A stretch of DNA of 64,000 bases, taken from a virus (lineage: Duplodnaviria > Heunggongvirae > Uroviricota > Caudoviricetes). Each line of letters opens with the position of its first letter. The stretch's first letter is position 1. The notes beneath the pieces are model-generated. The model had not been told where the DNA came from and did no database searches. It saw only the letters and a list, made by a program, of their open reading frames with translations. Positions 3,872-63,967 of this stretch are shown here, in pieces. A program made the translations under genes and the position numbers. The stretch lies in the IMG/VR virus record IMGVR_UViG_2883489344_000002. One strand, 5' to 3'.

Positions 3872-5575
3872 TTAGCTGGAGGCGCTTTCGATGATCTGGC
3901 CGGTGCGGAAGTTGATGCCGCCTTTCTTGGCGTTGGTCAGCGTCAGCAGGGTGAAATACTGCGAACCGTTACGCGGGTGGATGCGGTTGATAGCCGAACC
4001 CCACAGAGTGGTGCGGTTGCGCAGGCCTGGCGTGGTCGGGTGCACGAACGGGATCGCCGGCACGGCGTCGCCGGTGACAAAGCCGGCTTTGCCCGGGTTT
4101 TCGTCGCGGCAGTAGCACAGCACGTCATAGGAGCCGAAGGTCACGCCCTGTTTGGTGAAGGCATTGCAAACACCGGTCGGGACTTCATACACCTTGATGC
4201 TGCCGAAGAGGGTGCCCACGAAGTGCACAAACGGCACCTGGGTGTAATTCTCAGCTGGGGTGAACATGGACGGCGGCAGCATCTTGAAGAACAGCGCGGC
4301 ATCGGAGCCGGCAAACATACCGCTTGAGCCGCTGCTCTGGGTGCGTTCAGCGATATCACGGTAGATCTGCTGCATCTTCGATTTGAAGATCAGGCTCCAC
4401 ACGTCCCAGTTGGTATCCTGCGGGATAGCCAGGTCGAAGGTGTCAGTCTTCATGGTGCGGCGGATCATGATGCGCAGGCGCAGCATATCCTGCTCATGGG
4501 ACAGGTAGTCCTTCAGGGTGCGGTATTGCAGGCTGCCCAGGTCAATGCCGAACTCGCGTTGCGCGTCGTAGGCGGCCATGACGGTGTGCTCTGCTGCCAG
4601 GGCATACTGTGATGGGCGCACGGTGTACTTTTTCATTTCCTGGTTGATCAGCGGGATCAGCTCAGGCGCGGCCTCGATGTTGATCTCAACTTCTGCTTCC
4701 AGCTTGGTGCCGGAGGCCGGTGCCATGGAGAAGGTCAGGGTGATCTGGCCTTTGGTGTAGTCCAGGGAAGAGGTCAGGGAGACCGCCGTGCCGGAGGCAT
4801 CAGCGTAGGAGTGCAGCAGGGTGCCTTCACCGTTGTCTTCCGGGGTCGGCTCATTGCCGATGTACAGCACGGTACGCCCCTTACGGATCGGGATGTCCTT
4901 GCCTTCAAAGTCAGAGATTTTGAAGGTGAACACCTTGGTGGTGCCATCGCCCAGGGCGGAGAGCACGTAGTTGCGGCGCATCTGGGAGTAGGCACCCACA
5001 GACTGCATATCCAGCTTGTCACCGATCGCGTAGTCACCGAAGGTGGTGCCGGCTACGTTGAAGATCTCGTAGATGTTGGACTCATCGCGCGGAACCGGGA
5101 TGAAGGTACAGGCGTCGCCAGTCTGTGCGCCCAGCGCAACCGGCAGGATCATCGCCAGGAAGATAGCCTGGTGCAGGATGCCATCCTGACCGCTCATCAT
5201 CTCAGCGTTCACGCTTTCCAGCATGGATTGGTTAATGGTCTTCTGGCCGCCGGCGTTGCGGCTTTCTGCCATCAGGCAGTTTTCCAGCGTTTGGTGGCAC
5301 ATGGCCAGCAGGTCTTCGCGCGGGGCGGTTTTGTGCTTCGCTGCATAATCAGCATACGCAGCGCCCCAGGCGGTCACGATCTGGGAAACGGCAGACGGGT
5401 TAACACCCTCGAAGATCGGCTCTTGTTTCGCCGCCTCAAGCATGGCCACACGGCGTTCTTCCGCATTCTGGATAAAGCCGCCTTTGTTGAACTGCGCGTC
5501 AGACACGATGCGGGTCACACGACGCGCACGACTGGCGATGTCAGCAATATGCTGTTGATACTCTTTATTACTCAT
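3872..5575 (-). CDS. putative major capsid protein (about 567 aa from the internal ATG, MSNKEYQQ...)
   Basis: The longest ORF (to 5752) has an N-terminal extension with no RBS. The ATG at 5575 has a GAGG upstream. The size matches the P1 gene 23 product. It is the first gene of the operon after an intergenic region with terminators. Confidence 0.4.
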   Translation of the reverse strand: MSNKEYQQHIADIASRARRVTRIVSDAQFNKGGFIQNAEERRVAMLEAAKQEPIFEGVNPSAVSQIVTAWGAAYADYAAKHKTAPREDLLAMCHQTLENCLMAESRNAGGQKTINQSMLESVNAEMMSGQDGILHQAIFLAMILPVALGAQTGDACTFIPVPRDESNIYEIFNVAGTTFGDYAIGDKLDMQSVGAYSQMRRNYVLSALGDGTTKVFTFKISDFEGKDIPIRKGRTVLYIGNEPTPEDNGEGTLLHSYADASGTAVSLTSSLDYTKGQITLTFSMAPASGTKLEAEVEINIEAAPELIPLINQEMKKYTVRPSQYALAAEHTVMAAYDAQREFGIDLGSLQYRTLKDYLSHEQDMLRLRIMIRRTMKTDTFDLAIPQDTNWDVWSLIFKSKMQQIYRDIAERTQSSGSSGMFAGSDAALFFKMLPPSMFTPAENYTQVPFVHFVGTLFGSIKVYEVPTGVCNAFTKQGVTFGSYDVLCYCRDENPGKAGFVTGDAVPAIPFVHPTTPGLRNRTTLWGSAINRIHPRNGSQYFTLLTLTNAKKGGINFRTGQIIESASS

Positions 5576-5654
5576 TAAACCGAGCCTCTTGGGTTTGTTA
5601 ATCGGCTCGATCTTATGGAATGTTACATCTCCTTTTTTTGGGGTTAAGTTTTTT

Positions 5655-5686
5655 TCTGGGCAAAGAAAAAGGCGCTCAAAGCGCCT
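5655..5686 (-). terminator. rho-independent terminator after the lysis/spanin genes
   Basis: Minus-strand hairpin GGCGC-TTTGA-GCGCC followed by TTTTTCTTTG. Confidence 0.55.
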
Positions 5687-5764
5687 TGTCAGGATGATGC
5701 GAAGTGTCCTTCGCCTTAGAGGTTTTCCGGTACTTGACAGGCGGCCGCTCATCGAGAGCTACAG

Positions 5765-5800
5765 CCTGAAAATAAGAGAAGGCACCGCGTGGGTGCCTTG
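5765..5800 (-). terminator. second hairpin terminator
   Basis: Perfect 7-bp stem AGGCACC/GGTGCCT with a T-rich tail on the minus strand. Confidence 0.4.
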
Positions 5801-5883
5801 TGGGGACTTCAATGAAAGAAACAGTTTATTGCATGTCGGGGACAAACTTCTTTGTCCTCAAATCCATACTTCAAACAGTGGCG

Positions 5884-6162
5884 CTATTCTGAGGCAGTTT
5901 TTTTTCTTTGTCCAACACCCCCCACCGTCACACCGTTCACCCTGTTAACGCTGATGTTGTGGTCATTGATGGTAGCCAGCAAGACGCGCGTTTTCTCCAC
6001 GTAGGCGGGGTAGTCGCCATAGGTTTTCACCGTGAAGGCCGGCATTTGGCACATCCAGGCGCTAACCTGTGCCGGCGCGGCCTCAACCTTAACGTTGATA
6101 CTGGGCGTTGAAGTCGCTGACGGCTTGCTGCTGCACCCTGACAACACCGGCAGGCACAGCAT
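5884..6162 (-). CDS. o-spanin (Rz1-like outer-membrane lipoprotein)
   Basis: Internal start MLCLPVLSGC gives a lipobox signal peptide. The gene is small and S/T/P-rich. It is embedded in the 3' end of the i-spanin gene in another frame. Confidence 0.55.
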   Translation of the reverse strand: MLCLPVLSGCSSKPSATSTPSINVKVEAAPAQVSAWMCQMPAFTVKTYGDYPAYVEKTRVLLATINDHNISVNRVNGVTVGGVGQRKKTASE

Positions 6163-6556
6163 GGCCAGCGCAAAGATCTTGTGCCTGGAGCTGCCGGAGC
6201 TGCTGTTGTGCGGCCTCACTTTCGGCCTGGTAATGCTGGGCTTGCTGCTCATTTTCCTGGTTCTCCTGGTTTAATGCCTCGGTGCGCTGCGCATAGGCGT
6301 CACGCTGGGCGTCTGAAATGGCTTTGCTGGTGGCCAGCTGCTCTTTTTCGTTGGTCAGGGTGGTGATGCTGGTGCGCTGGTTGGCCAGCTGCTCGGCCTG
6401 CACCTGATTGACGTCCTTCAGGTCAGACACCCACAGCCAGCCCGCCACCAGCCCGGCCGCGATCGTCATGCCCATGCAAATCTCCACCTTGGCGCGGGTG
6501 GATAGGCCTGAAAGCAGGCTCCAGCTGGTTGAGAGGGCGGTAAACATGCTCATCAT
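6089..6556 (-). CDS. i-spanin (Rz-like)
   Basis: N-terminal TM segment (ICMGMTIAAGLVAGWLWV) followed by Q/E/A-rich coiled coil. 155 aa. It overlaps the lipoprotein ORF. Confidence 0.55.
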   Translation of the reverse strand: MMSMFTALSTSWSLLSGLSTRAKVEICMGMTIAAGLVAGWLWVSDLKDVNQVQAEQLANQRTSITTLTNEKEQLATSKAISDAQRDAYAQRTEALNQENQENEQQAQHYQAESEAAQQQLRQLQAQDLCAGHAVPAGVVRVQQQAVSDFNAQYQR

Positions 6557-7302
6557 GCACTTTCCTTGAGTAATGCCAGCACACTGGCAGGGGTGATCGC
6601 GCTAACGGCCTTTGCCACCGCCGCGCTGTTAATCGAGGCACCAATCAACGCCACAGAGATGGCATTGCTATATGCCTGCTGGGATGTAGTGATGCTGCTG
6701 CTTGCCGCGTCGTACTGGGTGGCCAACGTCTTTTGTGCGGCGGTAGCAGTGGCCATCTTCGCGGTGAAGCCCGTTACGGCAGTTTGGAGCGCAGCTACCT
6801 GGCTGGTAGAGAGCGCCGCCGGCACGGTAGCAGTGCCGCTGGCCAGCGTGGCATTGATGCTATCCATGGCGGACGATAGCGCGCTGATATCCAGGGCGGT
6901 GAGGGCGGCCACCAGCGCGCCGGGCGTGGCGGCATCACCGATCGCCGTGGAGATGGCCAGCTCACTGGCTTTTAGCCCGCTGGCGCGGCAGTGCACGTCC
7001 CAGCCCGTGGTGAGCTGGATAAGGGTCGAGGGGTCACTGTAGTTAGCCAATAGTGTTGCGTGGCTGGTGGCCTGGGTGGCCGTGCCCGCCAGCACCTTCG
7101 CCCAGCTGCTGATCTGCGCTACGTTGGCGTTGATGCTACTTGGGTAGGTCACGGTAGACAGCACCAGCCCAGAGAGCGTGGCACTGGCCTTAGTGGCCAA
7201 TTTGGCCGCCTGAGTGGATTGGGTGGCGCTGGCGGCCGTGGCCAGCCCGCCGGCGGTTTTGAGCGCCTGGTAGGCGGCAATTTGGGCAGGGGTAGAAAGC
7301 AT
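6553..7302 (-). CDS. Ala/Ser/Thr-rich low-complexity protein (249 aa), function unknown
   Basis: ORF in an operon between the PAAR-like gene and the spanins. Its composition is strongly A/S/T-biased. Confidence 0.4.
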   Translation of the reverse strand: MLSTPAQIAAYQALKTAGGLATAASATQSTQAAKLATKASATLSGLVLSTVTYPSSINANVAQISSWAKVLAGTATQATSHATLLANYSDPSTLIQLTTGWDVHCRASGLKASELAISTAIGDAATPGALVAALTALDISALSSAMDSINATLASGTATVPAALSTSQVAALQTAVTGFTAKMATATAAQKTLATQYDAASSSITTSQQAYSNAISVALIGASINSAAVAKAVSAITPASVLALLKESA

Positions 7303-7305
7303 AGG

Positions 7306-7590
7306 TTAACTCACTGACAGGAGCGGCTCGCCGCTGGTTACGGTGGAACCACAGGAAACCGGATCGCCCTCGCAGACCACGGCCTTGCCGCCTACGGTAA
7401 ACCAAGGGCGGGTAGACATGGCATTACCGGGGTGTGATGACGTTCCGTCTGTATGGGAGGGATAGGCGTTACCATCCACCAGCACTGCAACGCCATTGAC
7501 CGTGAAGAAATCCACGGCCTCGGCCGGCGGCCGGGAGGCAAACCCATCATGCCCAGAACACACGGAATTTTTTGTCGCTATGCCAGGCAT
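7306..7590 (-). CDS. PAAR-like spike-tip protein (94 aa)
   Basis: Contains GDPVSCGSTVTSG and VVCEG motifs consistent with the PAAR/DUF4150 zinc-binding cone. Confidence 0.45.
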   Translation of the reverse strand: MPGIATKNSVCSGHDGFASRPPAEAVDFFTVNGVAVLVDGNAYPSHTDGTSSHPGNAMSTRPWFTVGGKAVVCEGDPVSCGSTVTSGEPLLSVS

Positions 7591-8393
7591 TCGGCCGGCT
7601 CCAGCTCATGGGGCACCATATGCAGGCACTCATAGATTTCTGGCGTATCAGCGTAGCGCTCGCGCTGCTCGGCAAGGCAGGAGGTGGAGATGAGGGAGTT
7701 TCCTTTTTGGGATAACTGGATAGCTTTCACCTGGGGCTGCTGGCCAAGCCAGACCAGGGCGCTTGAGACCTTATAGCCCGCCACCACCAGCCGGCACTCT
7801 GGGGAGACAAGGTTATAGACCAGGCGGATAAAGTCCGGGTGATATTGGTGAGCGTCATCGATAATCACCGTGTTTACGCCTGGCAGCACCGATTCAAGGT
7901 ACTCGCGCGTGGCGTCCACCATCGGATCCCAGCACAGCCCCCACGTCAGCTTTTCATCCGTCGCCAGCACGTACTCTGTCCGCACAGAAAATAGGGCGTC
8001 CGCCAGGGCTAAGCCCGCGCCGGCATACCCATAGCGCAACATCTTGCGACACTTCAGCATGATGTCTTGGGTAGGGGAGATGACCATTACCACCTGATCA
8101 CGATTCATCACCAGGTCATGCAGTGCCACCATGGCACATGCTGTGGTCGCGCCTGTTTCTGGGGCGTGGAAGGCCAGAACATGGCGCTGGCTCTCCATGG
8201 CTGCCAATAAGCGCTGTTGCTGCCGGGTCATGCTCAATTCGGGGAGCACGTGGTTCGCAAAGTAGCGCAATGAGCGCTCTTCTGGCGTGAACTCGTCCAG
8301 CATGGCATAGCCCATATTGCGGACGCGGTTGCTTACCAGCTCGTTATGGTCAGGAAAAGTAATGCTCTCGAGAGTGGTTTTGAAGGAACCCAT
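7578..8393 (-). CDS. P-loop/DEAH-like NTPase-fold protein (271 aa)
   Basis: Degenerate Walker A (HAPETGATT) and a DEAH-like Walker B (VIIDDAHQY). First gene of the minus-strand operon. The promoter region at 8394-8560 is AT-rich. Confidence 0.4.
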   Translation of the reverse strand: MGSFKTTLESITFPDHNELVSNRVRNMGYAMLDEFTPEERSLRYFANHVLPELSMTRQQQRLLAAMESQRHVLAFHAPETGATTACAMVALHDLVMNRDQVVMVISPTQDIMLKCRKMLRYGYAGAGLALADALFSVRTEYVLATDEKLTWGLCWDPMVDATREYLESVLPGVNTVIIDDAHQYHPDFIRLVYNLVSPECRLVVAGYKVSSALVWLGQQPQVKAIQLSQKGNSLISTSCLAEQRERYADTPEIYECLHMVPHELEPAECLA

Positions 8394-8569
8394 AGACAGG
8401 CCTCATGATTAAAGGACTGCCAGCCTATGGAAAGTTGCATCTGCTTGTTAAACGTAATTGTTAAAATGAAAGCACAAAAAATGCGAATTAAGAATTTATT
8501 AATTGCTTACGGGATGCAACAAGCCAGAAAGGATCATAGACTCAGCCCTAAGAACGGGAGGTATAAATT

Positions 8570-8896
8570 ATGCGCAATTATATGTCTGCACTGACCGCTG
8601 AAGAGATCAGCCGCATCGCTGATCAAGCCGTAGCAGATGTTGCGAGTCAGAAACTTACGACGACGAAAAGTGCCGCTCCAGCAGCCTACGGAACCGCTCA
8701 CCGCGACCGTACTGCAATGGCTCATAATGTTAATGTACGTTATAGTATCTCTGATAAAAATGTGCACCTCAGCAAGGGTAACGATGGTATTACAGTTATC
8801 TATAGCAATGATTTACATGGGGTCTCGAGTAAATTATCAATGGCAACTGGTAGAGATCTTTTCCGCACCGCATTCAATTTAGCTCGTAAGGGTTAA
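8570..8896 (+). CDS. hypothetical protein (108 aa)
   Basis: Strong RBS GGGAGGT. Followed by a terminator. Confidence 0.5.
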   Translation: MRNYMSALTAEEISRIADQAVADVASQKLTTTKSAAPAAYGTAHRDRTAMAHNVNVRYSISDKNVHLSKGNDGITVIYSNDLHGVSSKLSMATGRDLFRTAFNLARKG

Positions 8897-8908
8897 AAAT
8901 ACTTAATC

Positions 8909-8937
8909 AATGCCCCTCTGATGGGGCATTTTATTTT
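8909..8937 (+). terminator. rho-independent terminator
   Basis: ATGCCCC-TCTGAT-GGGGCAT followed by TTTATTTTG. Confidence 0.65.
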
Positions 8938-8948
8938 GCCGGTGAGAC

Positions 8949-9617
8949 ATGAACCAGCCTAAAAAATGGGTTTTTACAGAGCTTGTCCAAGACGCTGATA
9001 ATCCAGAACAATTAATAGCTTATGCGATATATAAAGCGGATAAAGACGAACTGGCTAAGAAGTGCCGTCAAAGAAATAAAAGTGAAGATGATATTGGTAT
9101 CGAGTTAGAACGGTTTCATGATAATCTCGCGGATTCAGACCGGCGGCTAGCTGAATATAAACGCCGTGCAAATCAAGTAGTAGAAGGTTTGGTCAGGGGG
9201 GTGGACAGCAGGGTAAGAGCAGAACTTGAAGCGCGTGAAAATGCTCATATAAGACACTTGGAACAACAACTTATTTCAGTTCAGAATGAATTAACGAGAG
9301 CTGAAGAGACAGCCCTAAAAAAATGGACAGAACAGGCCCATAACTATAGCGCGCATCTTAATAAACCGCCAACTTGGAAAGCTGTAGCTAAATGGATCGG
9401 TCTGTGGCTAATTTCTGGAATACCTGGTTTGTTCGCAACGGTAATCACGACTATCATATTGGTTGGGCTTGTTTCCTTATTTACTACTAATGCACTTCAG
9501 TCAACTAAAGAAGCTCTAAAAGCTAGTCTGGATGTACTGATGGTAGATCATGGGGGAGTGCCGACAGGAAATATCAATGATTCTGACTCAGTATTAAATG
9601 AAAAAAAGAATCAATAA
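8949..9617 (+). CDS. membrane-anchored coiled-coil protein (222 aa)
   Basis: Cytoplasmic coiled-coil N-terminal part and a C-terminal TM segment (WIGLWLISGIPGLFATVITTIILVGLVSLF). Lower GC than the backbone. Confidence 0.5.
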   Translation: MNQPKKWVFTELVQDADNPEQLIAYAIYKADKDELAKKCRQRNKSEDDIGIELERFHDNLADSDRRLAEYKRRANQVVEGLVRGVDSRVRAELEARENAHIRHLEQQLISVQNELTRAEETALKKWTEQAHNYSAHLNKPPTWKAVAKWIGLWLISGIPGLFATVITTIILVGLVSLFTTNALQSTKEALKASLDVLMVDHGGVPTGNINDSDSVLNEKKNQ

Positions 9618-9632
9618 ATTCCAAACTATAAA

Positions 9633-9656
9633 GCCTCAAGTCGAGGGTTTTTTTAT
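9633..9656 (+). terminator. putative terminator
   Basis: CCTC-AAGT-CGAGG hairpin followed by TTTTTTT. Confidence 0.45.
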
Positions 9657-9722
9657 ACTTTCGGGGAATGACCTATCTTGACGTGTTGTTAATGCATAAA
9701 AAACTTACTAAGGTGAAATGCG

Positions 9723-10047
9723 ATGACCGATCATTTAAAAGCCATATATGAAATGACCCGGCGCTACAATAAATTAGGGGTAGTTTCTAATGAAGTTTTT
9801 GGTAGCATTGAGATAAGCATGAAGGCTCGTGAGCTTAAAGAAAAAATGCCTAATCTCCGTCCTATGGACGAAGAGCAAATCAAGGCCGTTCGAAACCGCT
9901 ACGGTATGTCTTAGTCTGCACTGGCTATTACAATCGGTATAACCGTTGAAAACGTATCAAAATGGGAACGCAATGAAGGCAAGCCTGGTGGTGCCGCATT
10001 ACGCATCCTTAACACGTTGGAGGCCAAAGGTTCCAGCGTTTTTGTAT
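9723..10047 (+). pseudogene. XRE-family HTH DNA-binding protein interrupted by an in-frame TAG at 9912-9914
   Basis: The N-terminal 63-aa ORF continues in the same frame after the TAG into a canonical HTH (SALAITIGITVENVSKWERNEGKPGGAALRIL). The combined product would be about 108 aa. Confidence 0.5.
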
Positions 10048-10147
10048 AGACAATTTAAGAGCGCGACAAATCAAAAAAATAAATCAGCACTTCGCCTATA
10101 AATAATTTATGTTATTTATGAGAGAGCTTGAGATAAAGAATTTGAGC

Positions 10148-11236
10148 CTAATTTTCAGAGGCTTCCTTATCGAAAAATAGATTTTTATATCTTGACAAAA
10201 TACCTGGTGGAGCCATTGATTTAATTATTTTAATATGGGGCAATATCGATAAGAAAATCTGCTGGCCTTCAGTGCTTTTAGCACCAATGTACTTTCTAAT
10301 AAATTCATTCTCATCTATGATCCCTATCAAGAACTTGTAAACTTCTTTTCTTTCAATCAATATTCCAGAATCAAATATTTCATCTAAAGTTCTTATTAAC
10401 TTGCGAAGCTGGTATTCAAGTGAAGCAAGTCTTTTCCCGTTAAATTCCATAATATCAGATGTTGATTTTCCATTGTTCACCCCGTTGATTTCTAATTTTT
10501 CCAAATAATCACGCTCTTGCTGGGTAAATAATTCTCGTAAAGATAAAAAGGATTCGTATGTTTCGTCGTCATTGTGTTGGCTTATTATATAATCTAGTAT
10601 GCGTACTGCCTTTTGGGATTTTACATAGACGGAACTAATTATCGCGGTCTGTGCATTGTACTCATTTTGCAATTGAGATATCTGCTCTTCAAGATTTTTT
10701 TTAGAATTGTTTAACTTATCAAGTTCATCTTTAGCGTTGTCTATTCCCATTCGCGCTAGCTCTTGTTTTTCTTTTTCTCGTTCAATTTTTGTGTTGTTTA
10801 TCTCAGCCTGAAGAGCAAGCGCTGCTTTTGCGGCCATATTTGAATGCTCATCGGCTACAGATGCATCTGCTTTTTTTTGAGACAAAAGTATTTGTTTGTC
10901 TAAAATATTACCTTCAGCTTCAATTTCTTTTTTTAACTTATGATTGGCCGCCCAAGTTTGCAACCAATCAATGCCCATTTGCAAGTATGGATATGCAATT
11001 GCTAATATCAAACCCCACAGTATCGGCTGAAAAAATCTTTGTGAGTAATAGCTGGGTTCATTTAAAATGGCAGCAATGCGCTGCTCAATGCTGCTTTTGC
11101 TCAATGCTAATATAAGAATCGCGTCCCAATTTTTTACTAAGAAACTCAAGGCAACAAAACCAAATATTGGGCTTGTAAGCCTATGCTTAACCGCTTCTTT
11201 GATTGATTCTTTAAGCTCTTCCATACGAACTCCCAC
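10148..11236 (-). CDS. AT-rich membrane-anchored coiled-coil protein (362 aa), possible exclusion/abortive-infection factor
   Basis: About 30-35% GC in a GC-rich genome. Two N-terminal TM segments, a long coiled coil, and a C-terminal domain with no recognisable motif. Confidence 0.5.
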   Translation of the reverse strand: MGVRMEELKESIKEAVKHRLTSPIFGFVALSFLVKNWDAILILALSKSSIEQRIAAILNEPSYYSQRFFQPILWGLILAIAYPYLQMGIDWLQTWAANHKLKKEIEAEGNILDKQILLSQKKADASVADEHSNMAAKAALALQAEINNTKIEREKEKQELARMGIDNAKDELDKLNNSKKNLEEQISQLQNEYNAQTAIISSVYVKSQKAVRILDYIISQHNDDETYESFLSLRELFTQQERDYLEKLEINGVNNGKSTSDIMEFNGKRLASLEYQLRKLIRTLDEIFDSGILIERKEVYKFLIGIIDENEFIRKYIGAKSTEGQQIFLSILPHIKIIKSMAPPGILSRYKNLFFDKEASEN

Positions 11237-12171: not shown

Positions 12172-14238
12172 TTAGAGGATGGCAATGATGTCGTGGACGC
12201 TGCCGCGTGTATCGCTGGCGCAGCTAATGGCGCGCCGTGCCACCAGCCCGCGCAGGGTGAAGCCCCGCGCTAGGTAGAGAGACATCACTTTTGGGGCGCT
12301 GCTATTGGTGATCACCACGCGCGCGCCGCGCCCGTGCGCCGCCAAAAGGTGATCGACCAGGGTTACCTGATCCTCATACGTGAAGCCATGCTCAGTGTAG
12401 GAGGTGAAGTTGCCTTCGCCTGGCATTGGCTCATAGGGCGGATCGCAAAAAATGACATCCCCCGCGCCGGCCTGGGCTATCGTCTCCTGGAAAGGCGCAC
12501 AGATAAACTCTCGCCGCGCACTGCTTCCAACAAAGTGATCCAGCTCCGCCGCCGGGAAGTAGCTTCCGGCCTTTTTGTTCCAGCCCACGTTAAACATCCC
12601 TTTGCGGTTATAGCGGCTCAGGCCATTAAAGCAGGTGCGGTTAAGCGCCAGGAACAGCGCCGCGTGGCGCGCCGGATTGGCCAGCCGCGCGTTAAACTCC
12701 TCACGCAGGGCAAGATAGGCCTCGTTGCTATCGCAGTCTGCCACTAACTTAGACGCGGCCGGGATAATGGCTCCTGGATAGTCAGACAGATGCTGGTAGA
12801 GGTTGATAAGGTCTGGGTTGATGTCAGCCAGCAGGCAGCGCTCAAAGCCGGCATTCATAAAGACCGAACCTGCTCCCACAAAAGGCTCTACCAGCCGCTG
12901 GCCAGTGCCCAGGGCGGGCAGCAGCGCGTCAAGGACGGAATATTTCCCACCCGCCCATTTCAGGAAGGGGCGCACCCGTACTGCACCCTCAATTGAGGGC
13001 GCGGCAGGCTGCATCACAGCGTTACTCACATTTTCCAAAATTCGTTGTCCTATCCAGTGCATAACAGGCACCGCCATGGAGTTACCCACTGCTTTGTAGC
13101 GGGGCGCATCAGGGCAGCTCTCGGCGGGCTTGCCTTTGAAGGGGATCATGGAGTGTCCATCAGGGAAGCCTTGCAACCTCTCACATTCCACGGGTCGAAG
13201 CCGGCGCACATGCTGACTGATCAGCGCGTGGGCTTTGTTGGAGCCGCCGCTGCCCGTACTTAAACAGTTGGCCACCTCCTCACCCAGCTCGGCAGTGGTG
13301 CCGCCCTCGCGGCCGCGCATCGATACCGCGCGGACAGGCATCACGGCGTGTACGTCTGTTCGGGTCAGGGTATGGCTTACCTCGGGCTTGTCGATCCCTA
13401 ATTGGTTTCCGCCGTTGCGTCCGGTACGGTTAATGACGTTGCCGGCAATGCTATAGGATGGGGCGTTATCCCATTCAATAGCGCTGCCTTCAGCTCCGGT
13501 GGCAACGGTCGCCCCCGGGACTCGGCTCGGCGGACTATCGAGGCGCAGGCTGTCGAACTCAAATAATACTTCTGCGGGATCGAGGTCTTCTCTAGCACTT
13601 GCGACAACAAACACACGGCGGCGGCGTTGTGCCACTCCGAAGTATTGGGCATCGAGGGTGCGCCAGGCGATCCGGCGCTGCTGGCCATAAACACAACCCG
13701 AGAGTGGCCACTTTGGAATGTGATCACCGGCGGGCTTGCTCCAGCGCCAGTAGGCGGTGCTCTTTCCTGGCTCAGGTTGCTCACCAGGTGTAAGCGGTTG
13801 AGCTTCTCCAGCCAAGCCGGCCAGGAAGCAGCCGAAGGCGTTGCTGCCATCGGAGAGGACGCCTGGGACGTTCTCCCAGACGATAACGGCGGGGGGCTTT
13901 CCAGCGGCGGCGCGCTGGTGGTCGATTTCATTGGCTAACTCCACGTATTTCAGGGTTAGCTGTCCGCGCTCATCCTCCAGGCCAGTACCCAGCCCGGCCA
14001 CCGAGAAGGCCTGGCAGGGCGTACCGCCCACCAGCAGGTCTGGCGCGGGAACGTTTCCGGCCTGCACCCGGCCGGCGATGGTGGTCATATCGCCCAGGTT
14101 GGGGACATCTGGCCAGTGGTGAGCCAGAACAGCGGAGGGGAAGGGGTCAATCTCAGAAAACCACGCCGCCCGGAAGCCCAGCGGCTCCCAGGCGACGGAT
14201 GCAGCTTCAATGCCGCTGCATACCGAGCCGTAGATCAT
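12172..14238 (-). CDS. bifunctional DNA methyltransferase: N-terminal C5-cytosine MTase fused to a C-terminal Dam-like N6-adenine MTase (688 aa)
   Basis: C5 motifs are present: CSGIEA (motif I), GGTPCQAFSVAG (motif IV), ENV, and RLQGFPD. The C-terminal half has Dam motifs PFLKWAGGK and DPPY. This matches the P1 Dmt concept. Confidence 0.75.
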   Translation of the reverse strand: MIYGSVCSGIEAASVAWEPLGFRAAWFSEIDPFPSAVLAHHWPDVPNLGDMTTIAGRVQAGNVPAPDLLVGGTPCQAFSVAGLGTGLEDERGQLTLKYVELANEIDHQRAAAGKPPAVIVWENVPGVLSDGSNAFGCFLAGLAGEAQPLTPGEQPEPGKSTAYWRWSKPAGDHIPKWPLSGCVYGQQRRIAWRTLDAQYFGVAQRRRRVFVVASAREDLDPAEVLFEFDSLRLDSPPSRVPGATVATGAEGSAIEWDNAPSYSIAGNVINRTGRNGGNQLGIDKPEVSHTLTRTDVHAVMPVRAVSMRGREGGTTAELGEEVANCLSTGSGGSNKAHALISQHVRRLRPVECERLQGFPDGHSMIPFKGKPAESCPDAPRYKAVGNSMAVPVMHWIGQRILENVSNAVMQPAAPSIEGAVRVRPFLKWAGGKYSVLDALLPALGTGQRLVEPFVGAGSVFMNAGFERCLLADINPDLINLYQHLSDYPGAIIPAASKLVADCDSNEAYLALREEFNARLANPARHAALFLALNRTCFNGLSRYNRKGMFNVGWNKKAGSYFPAAELDHFVGSSARREFICAPFQETIAQAGAGDVIFCDPPYEPMPGEGNFTSYTEHGFTYEDQVTLVDHLLAAHGRGARVVITNSSAPKVMSLYLARGFTLRGLVARRAISCASDTRGSVHDIIAIL

Positions 14239-22442: not shown

Positions 22443-23615
22443 CTATTGATATTGGGAGAGATAATCTGCAACTCCGTTCGCTGGATTTATCCCGCCAGTA
22501 TAGACTGTTCCTAGCTCTTGAGGCGTAACGGAGGTTGTAGGCCATATAACCATACCTTCAAAATAACTATCTATTTTAATTCTTTGAAGCTCTTTGAAAA
22601 GGTGGTCTTCTAATTCATTTTTTTTTAAGCAATTAACATAATAAGCGGCTGCACTTGCTACTATGTCTACAATCTGTAGTTGAGGATATTCTTGAGATGA
22701 ATGGAATGTTAAAGATCGAGCTTTGATTGGTAACTCAAAGGTTCTTCTGTCATAGCCATACACCTCTGTAATCCTTGACAAGTCCATAAATTTATTAAAT
22801 AAGTCTTGTTTCTCTACAATCGCTTTGGAATCGTCATGCTTGATATAAAAACCGCTGGGGTATGTTTTACCCCACTCTATACAGTGATTGAAGAGGCTGG
22901 GTATGGAAGGGTCTAATGTATTTTTTTCAACATTTTCTAATATATCATTAATTTCGCTTTTGGTAATGCTAATTCTATCTATTGTAGATTTGAATCTTTT
23001 GTCCTTAGAGCAAGCCTTTAGTTCATCAACTGATTCGTAAAATTCAGCAATAGACTCAGAGGATTGAATCCTAATCATGTTCATGAACTTCTGGTACATT
23101 TTATCTGTTTCTTCCTCTCCACACAAAGCAGGGAGGCAATAATAGTAAACATTAGACAGAGCAAGGTTGTGTCCATCTTTATAAAGATCCCACCCTCTAT
23201 TAAAACACCATGTTTCGATTAGAATATCAACAATCTTTGTTGTTAACATGTATTTTTTGTCGATTAAACAGATTTTAACATTCTCTTTATTGATATATTT
23301 ACTTTCAAGGAGCCTAATGATTCCATCCTGACCTGATTTCCTACGTTTAAGAGTTTTAAAGTGAGCTTCTATAGGGGATTTACTTCCTGTCAGCTCTAAT
23401 GCTTTGAGCGCATCTTGTTTATTAATGCTGCTTGAGCTTAAAGTGAAACAAGGTTGCGTTGGGTCAAGCAAGTTCCCGCCGGTATTTCCTGATTCATCAA
23501 AAAATATATCAGGCTTTATATGCATCATTTTATTTTTCTTTGCGGTCAGCTCTCTTTTATTTTCGTTACTCTTCTTTATTTTGTTTGCGCGCCGAAGTTG
23601 GCTATTTGCACCCAT
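22443..23615 (-). CDS. AT-rich DUF3800-like protein (390 aa; alternative start at 23528)
   Basis: Low GC. DUF3800-type N-terminal FFDESGNTG motif and C-terminal QIVDIVASAAAY motif. K-rich N-terminal extension. GAGGT SD at the long start. Confidence 0.55.
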   Translation of the reverse strand: MGANSQLRRANKIKKSNENKRELTAKKNKMMHIKPDIFFDESGNTGGNLLDPTQPCFTLSSSSINKQDALKALELTGSKSPIEAHFKTLKRRKSGQDGIIRLLESKYINKENVKICLIDKKYMLTTKIVDILIETWCFNRGWDLYKDGHNLALSNVYYYCLPALCGEEETDKMYQKFMNMIRIQSSESIAEFYESVDELKACSKDKRFKSTIDRISITKSEINDILENVEKNTLDPSIPSLFNHCIEWGKTYPSGFYIKHDDSKAIVEKQDLFNKFMDLSRITEVYGYDRRTFELPIKARSLTFHSSQEYPQLQIVDIVASAAAYYVNCLKKNELEDHLFKELQRIKIDSYFEGMVIWPTTSVTPQELGTVYTGGINPANGVADYLSQYQ

Positions 23616-25445: not shown

Positions 25446-25931
25446 ATGGCTAGTTATGTCGATTCAAATCTTTCTAAAGGTGAAGAGGTAATCACCCGCG
25501 CCCATGTATCTTGGCTTTCCTTCTTATTCGTAATAGTAATTGGTACAGTGTGTTTGCTGATAGGGCTGTTAGGAGCACTTATTCGTGGGAGCGGTGGCGG
25601 CGACATTCCTGGCATTTCGTGGTTTTTCATTTTAGTGGGGGCATTTCTCCTTCTTAAGGTCACCCTGATCATCGTAACTACAGAGCTTGCATTAACAAAT
25701 AAGCGCGTCATCGCTAAATTTGGCTTTATCCGCAGAACTACTGTTGAACTACGCCTTGATAAAGTCGAAAGTTTAGAGGTAAATCAAGGAATTATGGGGC
25801 GCTTGCTCGGGTATGGGAATATTGTTGTTAAAGGAACTGGCGGCACAGGCACCCCAATTCCATCTATCAAAAAACCCTTAGACTTTAGACGAATCGTTAA
25901 CAATTACATTGAAGAAAGAGAAGCAGTTTAA
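25446..25931 (+). CDS. membrane protein with bacterial PH (bPH_2/DUF304-like) domain
   Basis: Two TM segments followed by a YdbT-like PH-domain pattern. Low GC. A terminator follows at 25948-25979. Confidence 0.45.
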   Translation: MASYVDSNLSKGEEVITRAHVSWLSFLFVIVIGTVCLLIGLLGALIRGSGGGDIPGISWFFILVGAFLLLKVTLIIVTTELALTNKRVIAKFGFIRRTTVELRLDKVESLEVNQGIMGRLLGYGNIVVKGTGGTGTPIPSIKKPLDFRRIVNNYIEEREAV

Positions 25932-60270: not shown

Positions 60271-60729
60271 GCCCTTGGCAAAAGCGCTTTGGGTTATCGC
60301 CGCTTTACAGCGGTGGCCGTAGCCAACTGGCTTTAATCAAATACACCACTATTAATGTACTCGCACAGTCACCCGGTACACTATCGTGAATTTTCACAGT
60401 AATTTATTGGCAAACGCCTTCGCCATCTCTTCATCAAGGTGTCAGTTTTGCTATTGAAAGTTATTGTACGTTAGGAGAATTTTTTGTACCTCTGAGCTAT
60501 GGTAGAGCTTGACCATGTTGATAGGCAGTTTTGAGCGAATAGCGGAAGTTCGAAATTGTGATCTGATCTTTGTTGATTAATGTCTCCCAATGTTAGTAGT
60601 TTCTTCATATACAACGCTATGATATTCCCATTAATTCGAGTTTTCGAACGAACAAATCAGAGACCAGTGGTCACCTGCCGAGCACTGACTTGCATGTATG
60701 GATTTAATTAATCAAGGAAATTAATCGTT

Positions 60730-62757
60730 ATGAGTGATAATTTTGTTAGTAAAATTGTTAAGGGAAGAATCAAACCACCAATACGTGCTGATTTTAGTCT
60801 TGAAAAATGGAATGAGGAGTGGGCTAAGGTTGAGGCAAACTCTTCAGCAAGAGATAAAAAAGTCTATACAATGGGTATAATTATTGATGGTGTGCTCAGT
60901 GATATTAGAGAAAAACTAGCGGATTTATATCGACAAGCACCGAAAACAAACCATGAAAAACTGATGATCTCGTATATTGCAAGCTCCAATAGGACATCAG
61001 CTGTTGCTCTTAAACTTGCAAAAAGAACACCAACGACAAATGTTAATGACATAATGCTAAAAGCAAATGGTCGAGTAAACAAACAAAGCTTAGGAGAGAT
61101 CGTTCATGGAGCTGTTGATGGTTTTCAGCTTGCCATAAGAGAATGCATAAAAGGCATAGAGAATAATAGTCAAATAACAAGTTCTGATGATCCAATAGAT
61201 GAAATGATTTTCATCCAACAAGAAAGCTGGTTATCTCAGTTATATCATACTTACCTCCATCTTTGGCAATGCATTTTATGGAGTGATTATAATTTAGTAG
61301 AGATTGATGTTGAAAATAAAATATTCAGAATCGAACAGCCAAACACACCATTTGAAATTGCATTTAATAATAGTAGCCAGCGAAAAGAAAGTCTTTCAGC
61401 CCAAATGACATTTATCGCTACCCTACCTAATATAGCCCAATTCTTTGATGATGATAAATATATTTTTATTACTCGGGGTAATAAAAAAAGAGTGGCAAAA
61501 GTTGCATCTATTAGTAATGCGACTAGAGAATTAAAAACAATCAACGCGCACTGGAGAATGGGGGAGCATGATCTTGAAGACCACTTTCCTAAAGAGTGGT
61601 TAAACAATGATTTTGGTAAAGGGTTTTGTTTGTCAGAAGTATTGAATGTAATGAGAGTATTGATGCTCATCGCTAACATTGAGACTGAAAAATATCCAGA
61701 AGATGATAGTGCATATAATGTTAATAAATTAAGGGAGTTTTGTCCAACCGTTCAAGCAAGCTCATTAGAATGTGCCTTGTGTGAAGCTACAGAAATTAAC
61801 GCCCTTAAAATTAGTAAAATTCTTGATTTTCTAACATTTAATTCTTCTCCAACTGGAGATATTTGGTGTCAACCGTTGGTAAAATTAAAGAAAAATAAGT
61901 ATGCATTATTGACTAGCGCATTAAACGCACCGGTGATACTTAGGCTTTTCGAGCGTTGGGCATATCTTTTTGATATTGATCTCAGTAAAAAAGGAACGAC
62001 TTACGAAATAAAAGTTGTAGACGAAATAAACAGCGCTCTTAGAAGCAATGTATTTATAACTGACTATGACGATGCAGTATCTAAAAGAATTAAAGTAATA
62101 TCTGGTGAGGAAGAGATTGACTTTTTGGCAAGGGTCGATGATTTGATATTGATTGGTGAAGCAAAGTCTATAGTTACCACTGATTCAGAAATATCTAAGT
62201 ATCGGACGTCTGAAATACTTCAACATGCGGGAGAACAGGTTGTAAGGAAAACAGAGTTTTTAAGAACGAATTTACAAACTGTTTTTGAAGTATTGAATTG
62301 GAGTTATGATGCGAATAAAGATTATAAGTTTGCAGGGTTTATCATTAACAGCAGTCGCATATTTGTCGGGCATTCATTTAATTCAATACCAGTAATTGAT
62401 GAGAAAATACTTCAGGCATACTTCTCCTCAAATGAAATAAACCTGTTAACTGTGATTTCACAAAATAAGTCGAAATCTATTGCTTGGTACAGACTTTATA
62501 ACAATATCAATGAATTGAAGGATAACTTCAGTAAATATATCGCAGCCCCACCACAATTGAATGCCAACACTAAAGATTATGAGTATAATGAAATAGTTTT
62601 CCCCCATATAAATAATGACTCTTATAAAATCTCAAAAAAATATCTTGTATTTAAATCACGTGGCCTGTTAGCTCCTATGGAACAAGAACATAGTTTCCCG
62701 GTGATCAAATCAGCAGATTACGATTTAGAGATCGAGACTATTAACGTGACACTTTGA
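60730..62757 (+). CDS. large AT-rich protein of unknown function (675 aa) with a possible PD-(D/E)xK motif; candidate defence/exclusion gene
   Basis: About 30% GC, against roughly 55-60% for the backbone. It is preceded by a 450-bp AT-rich promoter region. EIDFLARVDDLILIGEAKS has the form D-x(n)-ExK. No NTPase motif. Confidence 0.6.
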   Translation: MSDNFVSKIVKGRIKPPIRADFSLEKWNEEWAKVEANSSARDKKVYTMGIIIDGVLSDIREKLADLYRQAPKTNHEKLMISYIASSNRTSAVALKLAKRTPTTNVNDIMLKANGRVNKQSLGEIVHGAVDGFQLAIRECIKGIENNSQITSSDDPIDEMIFIQQESWLSQLYHTYLHLWQCILWSDYNLVEIDVENKIFRIEQPNTPFEIAFNNSSQRKESLSAQMTFIATLPNIAQFFDDDKYIFITRGNKKRVAKVASISNATRELKTINAHWRMGEHDLEDHFPKEWLNNDFGKGFCLSEVLNVMRVLMLIANIETEKYPEDDSAYNVNKLREFCPTVQASSLECALCEATEINALKISKILDFLTFNSSPTGDIWCQPLVKLKKNKYALLTSALNAPVILRLFERWAYLFDIDLSKKGTTYEIKVVDEINSALRSNVFITDYDDAVSKRIKVISGEEEIDFLARVDDLILIGEAKSIVTTDSEISKYRTSEILQHAGEQVVRKTEFLRTNLQTVFEVLNWSYDANKDYKFAGFIINSSRIFVGHSFNSIPVIDEKILQAYFSSNEINLLTVISQNKSKSIAWYRLYNNINELKDNFSKYIAAPPQLNANTKDYEYNEIVFPHINNDSYKISKKYLVFKSRGLLAPMEQEHSFPVIKSADYDLEIETINVTL

Positions 62758-63160
62758 TTTTTCTAAATATATTGAATGTTATTGTAATGGCGATGTAATT
62801 AACAGAGTGTACCATCGCCATTTTCCCCTAGAAAAGCAATGTCCGCTTCTGGCACAAAGCAGACATGCTTCATCCGGCGTTTTGTCGTCGTCAGTTAACC
62901 CAATCTCTTTGTACCAGGCACGGCGGCCGCTCCAACTTTCTCGTATCATTTGTTGCCAGAACTGCACTGCAAAGAGGCATGCAAATGCTGTCGCATTTGT
63001 CGCCTTTAGGCTGGGAACACATCGATCTGATAGGCGATTATAGATGGAAAAGCAACCAAATACCGGCTTCTGGTAAGTTTCGTCGGCTGAGACCAGCTAA
63101 AGTCGAAAGGTCAAAAATAGCCTTAACGTACAATAATTTTCGATATCCAAACTGACCCCT

Positions 63161-63394
63161 ATGAACAGTCTTTCAACGCGAACGAAGGACTTAGAGCAGG
63201 AATCGAAAGCGCAGCAGCAGACTATCGGCGAGATGCTGAAAGCCGCATTCAGCGAGCACGAGAAGTCTGTCAGAGCGGAACTGAACGAAAGCGAGAAGAG
63301 AATCAGCGCCGCCATCCTCGACCACGACCGGAAGCTGCCCTCAGCCATGAGCCAGCGCACGAAAGGCATGGTGCGCATGGTCAGCCAGACGTGA
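63161..63394 (+). CDS. MobB/MbeB-like small mobilization protein (ColE1-type)
   Basis: TKDLEQESKAQQQTIGEMLKAAFSEHEKS resembles MbeB/MobB from small mobilizable plasmids. Confidence 0.4.
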   Translation: MNSLSTRTKDLEQESKAQQQTIGEMLKAAFSEHEKSVRAELNESEKRISAAILDHDRKLPSAMSQRTKGMVRMVSQT

Positions 63395-63466
63395 CTGACC
63401 ATCGTCCTGGTCTCCGCGCTGCTGATAGCATCGAGCACGGGCATTCTGCGGTGGCAGAGGCAACAG

Positions 63467-63658
63467 ATGCTCAACAATTACACTAGCATCTGGAAGCAGA
63501 AGGACGCGCTGGAGAAGCGGAACGCGCGGACGTGGGGCGTGAGGTACCAGGAAGACAACCAGGGGTGCTTTCTGGTCCTGCCGGAAGGCGTACAAGCGGA
63601 CACGAACTGGACGTTCGATAACGGCAGGAAGAACGGCATCAGACTGGTGCAGGAGTAG
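63467..63658 (+). CDS. hypothetical small protein in the mob-like region
   Basis: ORF. Confidence 0.25.
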   Translation: MLNNYTSIWKQKDALEKRNARTWGVRYQEDNQGCFLVLPEGVQADTNWTFDNGRKNGIRLVQE

Positions 63659-63664
63659 AGCAGC

Positions 63665-63967
63665 ATGACGGAGCTGGAAAAACAGTTGCTGAGCGCATTA
63701 GAGCAGCTACAGCAGGACTACTCGAAAAGGCTGGACGAGTGTGAGAATGCCTTCGCGGAATGGCGGACGATGTCTGGTCTTATGCAAAGGAAGAACGCGG
63801 CGCTGAGCGAGCGCGTCACGGGCTTGAGCAGGCAAGTGCAGAGTTTGAGCGAGCAGCTGAACGCCGCGGAGTTGCGCCAGCAGCAGGAGTGGGCGGCGCA
63901 GCATCAAAAACGCTGGAACTGCAACATAATCAGCGACAGAATGGTTTCAATTTTGGAATGTAGGTAA
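63665..63967 (+). CDS. MbeD/MobD-like protein (entry-exclusion/mobilization accessory)
   Basis: MTELEKQLLSALEQLQQDYSKRL...AFAEW...LSEQL resembles the MbeD_MobD family. Confidence 0.45.
   Translation: MTELEKQLLSALEQLQQDYSKRLDECENAFAEWRTMSGLMQRKNAALSERVTGLSRQVQSLSEQLNAAELRQQQEWAAQHQKRWNCNIISDRMVSILECR

Follow-up and report, generated by a model that had tools for sequence, protein, structure and literature searches.

This article concerns a gene for a protein of 675 amino acids (aa) in a 64,000-nt stretch of viral DNA (Caudoviricetes; IMG/VR record IMGVR_UViG_2883489344_000002). We call the whole stretch the window, and all positions refer to it unless another locus is named. On the evidence of conserved residues and a modeled structure, the protein is predicted to be a PD-(D/E)xK nuclease with a core of the FokI/Upx class. 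Its gene travels, together with its own flanks, as a single-gene unit of ~2.3 kb (60541-62865). Relatives of the gene occupy prophage accessory slots and defense islands, which fits the defense or exclusion role proposed in an earlier note on this DNA, and we consider a defense role of some kind likely, judging from this context.

The protein family and its nuclease core

We base the nuclease assignment on motif conservation, a confident predicted fold, and the structural neighbors of that fold. The family itself is large. At the 50% identity level, an exhaustive profile search returned 1,296 representatives, of which 439 had E values no higher than 1e-30; the top 150 matches were mostly full-length proteins of 640-690 aa. 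A word-indexed search gave 81 clusters, nearly all of 654-711 aa with shorter partials as the remainder, and every named cluster was called “hypothetical.”

Among 51 aligned close and medium homologues, D464 and K479 are invariant, as are E426 and Q503, and E477 is present in at least 90%. The strongest block of this alignment reads KGxxYE ... EEEIDxL ... GEAKSIVTTDS ... QxxRK. The same positions hold at greater distance: G422, E426, E461, D464, E477, K479, Q503, R506, and K507 are invariant in 14 distant members with 19-37% identity over the core region. The earlier note had placed the PD-(D/E)xK motif at VDDLILIGEAKS (residues 469-480). It had the ExK part (E477, K479) right; the two aspartates of its “VDD,” D470 and D471, are not conserved, and the invariant aspartate is D464, within EEEIDxL, which is the predicted catalytic Asp. 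Across the family, the nuclease core is the most conserved part of the protein, and the insert at residues 186-265 and the C-terminal tail are the most variable. The active site is under strong purifying selection.

An AlphaFold2 model of the full-length protein, built from the family alignment, scored 91.5 for the predicted local distance difference test (pLDDT) and 0.89 for the predicted template modeling score (pTM). In this model, residues 420-540 form an alpha-beta-beta-beta-alpha-beta core (helix 420-439; strands 446-456, 459-469, and 472-479; helix 487-513; strand 533-540) with pLDDT >90; D464 ends beta2 and E477-x-K479 lies in beta3. Foldseek searches of the PDB gave weak matches, almost all of them PD-(D/E)xK nucleases (VC1899/Can2, McrC, SduA, R2 endonuclease, XisH, and Bax1). 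The closest folds are Upx, then the Type IIS enzymes FokI (183 residues aligned) and N.BspD6I (187); R.BspD6I is also a neighbor, and Can2, AF1548, NgoMIV, Hna, SduA, XisH, R2, McrC, NucS, HindIII, and Hjc lie further out. Winged-helix domains (Cdt1, MCM8, Crp-family, SarX, and JetB) are interleaved among these matches. Three marks by which PD-(D/E)xK enzymes are recognized were found: the core fold, D in beta2 with (D/E)xK in beta3 across homologues, and similarity to solved members. The earlier note had suggested looking for a restriction-endonuclease-like fold with AlphaFold and Foldseek, and such a fold is what the model places at residues 416-545, with PD-(D/E)xK nucleases as its neighbors.

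The libraries gave the protein no name. There was no domain or family match in Pfam, NCBIfam (June 2026), or PHROGs; none of the 5,027 models of PADLOC-DB v2.0.0 matched at E up to 1; and PDB sequences searched with a profile, down to matches of E = 10, gave nothing and did not yield 9wuf. The statement in the earlier note that no known domain could be recognized therefore holds for Pfam, PADLOC, NCBIfam, and PHROGs alike. We found no paper citing WP_065203500, WP_137765894, QCR38804, or two UniProt identifiers of the family, and the RefSeq annotation of the family is still “hypothetical.”

The layout of the rest of the protein is given in Table 1. By analogy with the N-terminal domain of Upx, we also considered a second active site near the N-terminus. 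This is unsupported: W, P, Y, and R make up most of the N-terminal residues that distant members conserve.

The mobile unit and its relatives

The host replicon is a P1-like phage-plasmid, as the earlier note had also proposed, and belongs to Nissabacter. With 100% identity, the 675-aa protein matches QCR38804.1 / WP_137765894.1, a hypothetical protein that Nissabacter sp. SGAir0207 encodes on a 101,864-bp contig; seven plasmids have been reported for this strain (PMC6687921). The capsid protein of the replicon has 62% identity to P1 gp23, the replicon encodes ParM and a Dam/Dcm fusion methylase, and the stretch upstream of the nuclease gene shares its gene order with Cronobacter phage JK004 and the ppp/pmgO-Q region of P1.

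Within this replicon, the gene stands out by its base composition. The guanine-plus-cytosine (GC) content of its open reading frame (ORF) is 34.1%, or 27.7% at third codon positions (GC3), versus 53.0% for the window, where no other 2-kb stretch has a lower value. The figure of “roughly 30%” given initially was slightly low, and “by far” the lowest was an overstatement, as the 1-kb bin 10001-11000 is likewise AT-rich (34.3% GC in 1-kb bins of the window). The spacer before the ORF (60271-60729) is intergenic, 459 bp long, and of 41% GC. In 16 other genomes, the GC content of the gene lies below that of its surroundings in 15 and equals it in one; examples are 31% versus 52% in Undibacterium, 36% versus 61% in Ectopseudomonas, and 27% versus 34% in Acinetobacter. 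AT-richness is therefore a trait of the family and not a local accident.

The limits of the unit come from comparing copies. Those in the window, in Escherichia coli (L001), and in Klebsiella (L012) share the ORF together with ~190 bp on its 5' side (from 60541) and ~108 bp on its 3' side (to 62865), and the sequence outside 60541-62865 is unrelated among the three loci. Between Nissabacter and E. coli, the unit has 82% nucleotide identity. In the window, it is placed between P1-like genes and a mobilization remnant (MbeB, MbeD) with a segment common to many Tn3-bearing plasmids, a position that fits recent acquisition in a junk-collecting region. Thus, low GC, conserved flanks, and unrelated surroundings all agree with what the earlier note had described as a single 675-aa gene forming a recently acquired, self-contained module.

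Flank identity is 80-85% between the window and the other two copies, versus 70-77% at four-fold sites; between E. coli and Klebsiella, flanks and four-fold sites both stand at 84%. By these alignments, co-transfer of the flanks with the gene is shown, and extra selective constraint on them is weakly suggested. The 5' flank contains a candidate -10 element at 60618-60623 (TATGAT; TATAAT in E. coli) without a good -35 element. The hairpin reported downstream of the gene is real: the stem of hairpin 1 is invariant in the E. coli and Klebsiella copies, and its fold z-score is -2.05. We rate it as a marginal intrinsic terminator because its U-run is short. Hairpin 2 marks the 3' end of the unit, where homology stops. 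A search of Rfam with the gene and its flanks gave no match. RNAalifold paired a conserved UAGUUUCUU (60597-60605) with the Shine-Dalgarno region AAGGAAAUUA (60714-60723), which could possibly form a translational brake on a toxic gene; we do not rely on this prediction, as it draws on three sequences with no covariation, and the 60597-60605 segment would lie upstream of the candidate -10 element and may precede the transcription start.

Does the unit move by itself? It is present in one copy per genome wherever it is found and has no terminal inverted repeats at its ends, so it does not look self-mobile. In the window, the gene is flanked on both sides by an imperfect direct repeat of 17 nt, TATTGAA(A/T)GTTATTGTA, at 60452-60468 and 62770-62786, with 16 of 17 positions matching. 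By our estimate, ~0.06 such repeats would be expected by chance; the left copy lies outside the conserved boundary and the right copy is not kept in E. coli or Klebsiella, so that the repeat may be a recombination scar or a coincidence. An insertion sequence or other self-mobile element was rejected on the absence of terminal inverted repeats, the single copy, and the lack of conservation of this repeat.

The gene is rare, and its distribution is patchy. It occurs in 8 of 5,426 complete E. coli genomes, always on the chromosome and always annotated “hypothetical.” A motif-based scan with one genome per species gave 17 loci, which is a lower bound; the collection is described by the tool as 185,579 species. 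A plasmid search gave one full-length match, from Alteromonas. The gene is not an orphan peculiar to P1-like elements: the family has ~1,300 clusters at 50% identity, with no other phage record and one plasmid record holding a close copy. Split copies, with frameshifts or stop codons, are found in 4 of 16 representative genomes (L026, L027, L028, and L029), and also in E. coli and K. quasipneumoniae clusters (P0007, P0003); the frequency of such copies suggests a costly gene with rapid turnover. A large (550 kb) conjugative plasmid of Klebsiella pneumoniae (NZ_CP129856.1, 498320-499807) encodes a hypothetical protein that is a very distant relative, with 22% identity over residues 114-607.

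Several of these relatives lie in prophages. In E. coli, the gene is an opposite-strand insert in a Rac-type/lambdoid prophage, placed between the replication genes and the Q region: ydaU/ydaV/DUF1627/DUF977 lie on one side and the hok and Q region on the other, and sieB and racR are close by. The Shewanella copy is directly beside the cI-like repressor of a lambdoid prophage, and the Providencia copy separates gpU from the tail-fiber genes within the tail-gene cluster of a P2-like prophage. In P2-like phages, the Z/fun locus and the tail-gene region are known hotspots for accessory and defense genes (PMC13586616). Others lie in islands: with HsdR, AlpA, T5orf172, CbtA/CbeA, and Mrr in Klebsiella; at the cargo end of small integrase/resolvase islets in Pseudomonas and Ectopseudomonas; and adjoining an integrase and a TIR/SLATT/ThsB cluster in Idiomarina. 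The 131 neighboring ORFs at 16 further loci include transposases, integrases, resolvases, superfamily 1 (SF1) helicases, and PLD nucleases. There is no adjacent methyltransferase in the window or in ~25 homologous loci; prophage orphan methylases occur 4-6 kb from the gene in two loci, an arrangement that is not conserved.

PADLOC matches among the neighbors are LmuB/PDC-M68B, PDC-S15 directly downstream in Oleispira, and PDC-M54A directly upstream in Acinetobacter. In Oleispira (L020), the PDC-S15 candidate defense protein (12183-13283) adjoins a distant family member, as does a 1,539-aa PDC-M54A-like protein (5284-9900) in Acinetobacter schindleri (L030). Two other candidate partners were dropped. 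PDC-S68 had looked like a recurrent defense partner, and its matches cover the helicase domain only, as a generic SF1 helicase would give. The large genes directly upstream in Idiomarina, Photobacterium, Colwellia, Undibacterium, and Metapseudomonas, which might have been paralogues or a third component, show no relation to one another or to the nuclease.

One neighbor does recur. In four marine genera (V. cholerae, Photobacterium indicum, Aliivibrio, and Idiomarina), a gene for a HEPN protein follows 14-55 nt downstream of the nuclease gene on the same strand. In the three Vibrionaceae loci, the HEPN proteins share 62-79% identity versus 51-61% for the nucleases, with nothing else common in the flanks, and the Idiomarina HEPN protein is 63% identical to that of V. 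cholerae. Since nuclease and HEPN protein have both diverged and the flanks are unrelated, the pair must have been kept together over a long divergence. The linkage is not obligatory: in another Vibrio (L016), a nuclease with 96% identity has no HEPN gene beside it, and none accompanies any of the enterobacterial copies (that of the window included) or those of Pseudomonas and Shewanella. HEPN proteins are typical abortive effectors; this one had no PADLOC match. It is either an optional second component or a frequent fellow traveler, and the nuclease with HEPN may be a two-gene variant of the system.

Table 1. Coordinates of the nuclease gene, the parts of its product, the flanking elements, and the linked HEPN genes. 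Positions are those of the window unless a locus is given.
Feature	Position	Strand	Remarks
Conserved 5' non-coding flank	60541-60729	+	Probable promoter and 5' untranslated region; 80-85% identity in three-way alignment
Coding sequence, 675 aa	60730-62757	+	ATG start; Shine-Dalgarno AAGGAA at 60714-60719, 10 nt before ATG
Residues 1-185	60730-61284	+	Long helices; putative regulatory/sensor part; conserved residues mostly W, P, Y, R, structural-looking
Residues 186-265	61285-61524	+	Beta-hairpin/helix insert; among the two most variable parts
Residues 266-415	61525-61974	+	Helical domain with winged helix at its end
Winged helix, about residues 343-393	61756-61908	+	Invariant F367, D377, W379, P382
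Residues 416-545	61975-62364	+	Predicted PD-(D/E)xK core, from fold topology and conservation
Predicted catalytic set	E426 62005-62007; D464 62119-62121; E477 62158-62160; K479 62164-62166; Q503 62236-62238; then R506, K507	+	From conservation
Residues 546-675	62365-62754	+	C-terminal alpha/beta domain; invariant PPQ 607-609; last ~60 residues most variable, dropping from distant alignments
Hairpin 1	62786-62822	+	10-bp stem AATGGCGATG/CATCGCCATT (62786-62795 / 62813-62822), 17-nt loop, short T-run
Hairpin 2, ATGTCCGC...GCAGACAT	62839-62866		Terminator-like on - strand in scan; stems invariant in E. coli and Klebsiella copies
~400-aa HEPN_Toprim_N/RiboL-PSP gene	L005 12087-13280; L019 12086-13288; L024 12047-13246; L036 10058-11254	nuclease strand	RHDIVHRNGK, Rx4H motif

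Other parts of the window deserve a brief mention. The segment 3' of the unit is a mobilization remnant within the P1-like phage-plasmid. Directly 3' of the unit, 62981-63171, 63161-63391, and 63665-63964 have 88-94% identity to sequence in ~2,800 enterobacterial plasmids; the plasmid matches to 62981-63964 are annotated at or beside Tn3-family transposase genes, and ColE1-type MbeB and MbeD genes then follow. A second AT-rich island (34% GC) holds a 362-aa ORF at 10151-11236 (- strand) without a Pfam match, adjoining the gene for a 688-aa Dam (D12) and Dcm (C5) fusion methyltransferase at 12175-14238 (- strand). This ORF could be a second accessory or defense-type gene. Between 22 and 26 kb, also AT-rich, lie genes for a DUF3800 protein (390 aa; 22446-23615, - strand) and a bacterial PH-domain (bPH_2) protein (161 aa; 25446-25928, + strand), both candidates for further morons.

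A likely defense gene and its alternatives

What might such a nuclease do? Our preferred explanation, to which we give slightly less than an even chance, is a trigger-activated immune nuclease of temperate elements that excludes competing phages. The ~2.3-kb moron, recently acquired by the P1-like phage-plasmid, would encode a cytoplasmic, metal-dependent DNA nuclease with a single active site, which the winged helix and the ~340-residue, mostly helical N-terminal region would hold inactive. Binding of an infection cue (a phage protein or a phage DNA structure) would then release or oligomerize the cleavage domain, and the freed domain would degrade DNA, halting the infection and possibly costing the cell. 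We infer the defense role, the autoinhibition, and the trigger. FokI-type domains have a single active site, and oligomerization is needed for cutting both strands. Support for an immune nuclease comes from the defense-type locations of the gene, its rarity and mobility, the absence of an adjacent methyltransferase, the linkage to HEPN, and the precedents set by Upx and GAPS1 for immunity from one protein with a sensor and a C-terminal PD-(D/E)xK domain.

A wider version of this proposal seems to us as good as even. The protein would found a new and widespread single-protein immune nuclease family, in which a new helical and winged-helix sensor gates a FokI/Upx-class domain. P1-like, lambdoid, and P2-like prophages would have exchanged it as a 2.3-kb plug-in, and in a marine sub-lineage a HEPN RNase would have joined as a second effector, so that this two-gene system would degrade both DNA and RNA.

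Several observations weigh against an immune function of this kind and should be kept in mind. No match in a defense library (PADLOC v2) backs it. The evidence from genomic context is qualitative, and the Serratia fonticola copy has no mobile or defense genes visible nearby. A tblastn search of 50,697 phage records gave no match, so that prophages and this plasmid are the only phage carriers seen. Finally, a consensus scan of 60271-60729 found no + strand sigma-70-like promoter; of the “promoter-like” upstream region in the earlier note, what stands is the conserved flank with its TATGAT.

The strongest competitor, which we regard as unlikely but worth serious attention, is a solitary restriction nuclease that acts directly, non-abortively, and without a protein trigger, in the manner of Type IV enzymes or of a methylase-less Type IIS enzyme. 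Here, the winged helix and N-terminal domains would read hypermodified bases, odd structures, or free ends, and the FokI-like domain would dimerize and cut the invader, sparing the host. The nearest folds after Upx speak for it, as these are the Type IIS enzymes FokI and N.BspD6I, in which winged-helix recognition modules are fused to a FokI-type domain. Mrr likewise pairs a winged helix with a PD-(D/E)xK domain. Also in its favor are the lack of an adjacent methyltransferase anywhere and the coexistence of the gene with Dam/Dcm-proficient hosts and with the Dam/Dcm fusion methylase of the plasmid, as would be possible for an enzyme aimed at other marks. A precedent exists in the END nucleases, which are solitary and non-abortive, sit in defense islands, and attack hypermodified phages (PMC12191111). 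However, no known modified-base reader (SRA, PUA/EVE, iEndoIII, or DUF262) was found by Pfam or fold search, a helical N-terminus of ~340 residues is untypical of Type IV readers, and linkage to a HEPN RNase in four genera suits abortive systems better. Our preference for a triggered nuclease over direct restriction is based on the missing modified-base reader, the large and variable non-catalytic part of the protein, and the HEPN linkage, and it is a weak one.

Less probable again is a nuclease in the service of mobile elements, whether for recombination, repair, or replication processing, as an anti-plasmid or incompatibility factor, or for post-segregational addiction. Many resolvases and recombination nucleases are PD-(D/E)xK enzymes, the fold matches include Hjc, NucS, and XisH, and the gene is almost confined to mobile elements, including the plasmid-prophage and the Alteromonas plasmid. 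Yet the gene is inserted on the opposite strand, brings its own flanks, and belongs to no conserved operon for replication or recombination. None of the other P1-like, lambdoid, and P2-like phages in the phage collection has it, so it must be dispensable for them. There is no conserved antitoxin-like partner, and rarity, frequent decay, and defense-gene neighbors make up the pattern of defense cargo. A selfish cassette, with the nuclease as a homing endonuclease or transposase and the hairpin-bearing flanks as its ends, is very improbable. What might recall one is that the 2.3-kb unit, which contains no recombinase gene, recurs in unrelated sites with its flanks conserved, and that a direct repeat surrounds it in the window. 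But the unit is single-copy and lacks terminal inverted repeats, the repeat falls beyond the conserved boundary on the left and is not kept in E. coli or Klebsiella, and insertion is into accessory slots of various kinds rather than at a single target sequence.

The nuclease gene is, in our view, a good and well-delimited candidate defense gene. If confirmed, it would add one more single-protein defense family, missed by every library tested, including NCBIfam as of mid-2026, and would offer a compact 675-aa model for the silencing and release, during immunity, of a non-specific FokI-type cleavage domain. Since three temperate-phage lineages have this unit in their accessory slots, it can serve as a marker for the exchange of defense cargo between prophages, and the facultative HEPN partner provides a natural comparison of a one-effector with a two-effector version. 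We rate its importance as moderate, because candidates of this sort are numerous and their general design is familiar.

Comparison with known systems

Upx, reportedly described by Gao et al. 2020 and represented by structure 9wuf, is the closest fold. PADLOC includes models for both Upx (Gao-2020) and Shedu. There is no detectable sequence similarity between Upx and the protein described here by PADLOC or by the profile search of the PDB, and identity in the structural alignment is 10-13%. Upx is activated by terminase (the ATPase domain of the large terminase), which acts on its C-terminal PD-(D/E)xK domain (PMC13601566, where a screen for toxicity on co-expression is described); it degrades single-stranded DNA and replication intermediates, and its N-terminal domain has a second, atypical nuclease site (PMC13099982). 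It is also the larger protein, with 1,272 aa (roughly 1,200-1,270) in N-terminal, middle, and C-terminal domains and its nuclease core at the extreme C-terminus (PMC13099982). In contrast, the nuclease here has 675 aa, a core at 416-545 followed by ~130 residues, and no sign of a second active site.

GAPS1, a cargo gene of Gamma-Mobile-Trio islands, is triggered by a capsid protein and brings about dormancy via its C-terminal PD-(D/E)xK domain, a mechanism like the one we propose; its authors defined homologues by RPS-BLAST, with E <1e-15 and a minimum coverage of 70% (10.1101/2023.03.28.534373). We compared GAPS1 (WP_005477165.1) by its published motif spacing and prevalence only. Like the protein here, it is a single protein with PD-(D/E)xK toward the C-terminus and the same 15-residue spacing from D to K (D313/K328 vs. 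D464/K479), carried on mobile islands in Vibrio and Enterobacterales. Unlike it, GAPS1 has its active site ~150 residues nearer the N-terminus, implying a smaller protein, and is common (~3.5% of RefSeq genomes, mostly K. pneumoniae), compared with 8 of 5,426 E. coli genomes for the family here.

FokI-type Type IIS enzymes have a cognate methyltransferase. For the present gene, none adjoins it in any context; there is no sequence similarity to FokI or to N.BspD6I/R.BspD6I, and the N-terminal 340 residues and the C-terminal domain are without a counterpart in FokI-type enzymes. As for Shedu (SduA), neither a DUF4263 match in Pfam nor a PADLOC Shedu match was obtained, and the likeness is limited to the common core.

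The END nucleases and Mrr offer a different parallel, as they too are solitary, lack a methylase, reside in defense islands, and combine a modular sensor with a cleavage domain (PMC12191111). END nucleases consist of a PLD (HxK) nuclease and an inactive EndoIII/Ogg1-like sensor, and neither an HhH-GPD nor a PLD match was found here by Pfam or fold search; identity with them was rejected, since both nuclease and sensor differ. The Mrr_cat domain of Mrr was not detected in the 675-aa protein, nor were the other Type IV domains sought by Pfam and fold search (SRA, PUA/EVE, DUF262, and McrB-N).

The novelty suggested in the earlier note thus holds in one sense and fails in another: no library holds the protein and the PADLOC check was empty, whereas the one-protein design of a sensor with a C-terminal PD-(D/E)xK domain is known from Upx, GAPS1, and Shedu. 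The best reading is that the nuclease represents a new family of this solitary sensor-plus-nuclease kind, with GAPS1 compared by its published description.

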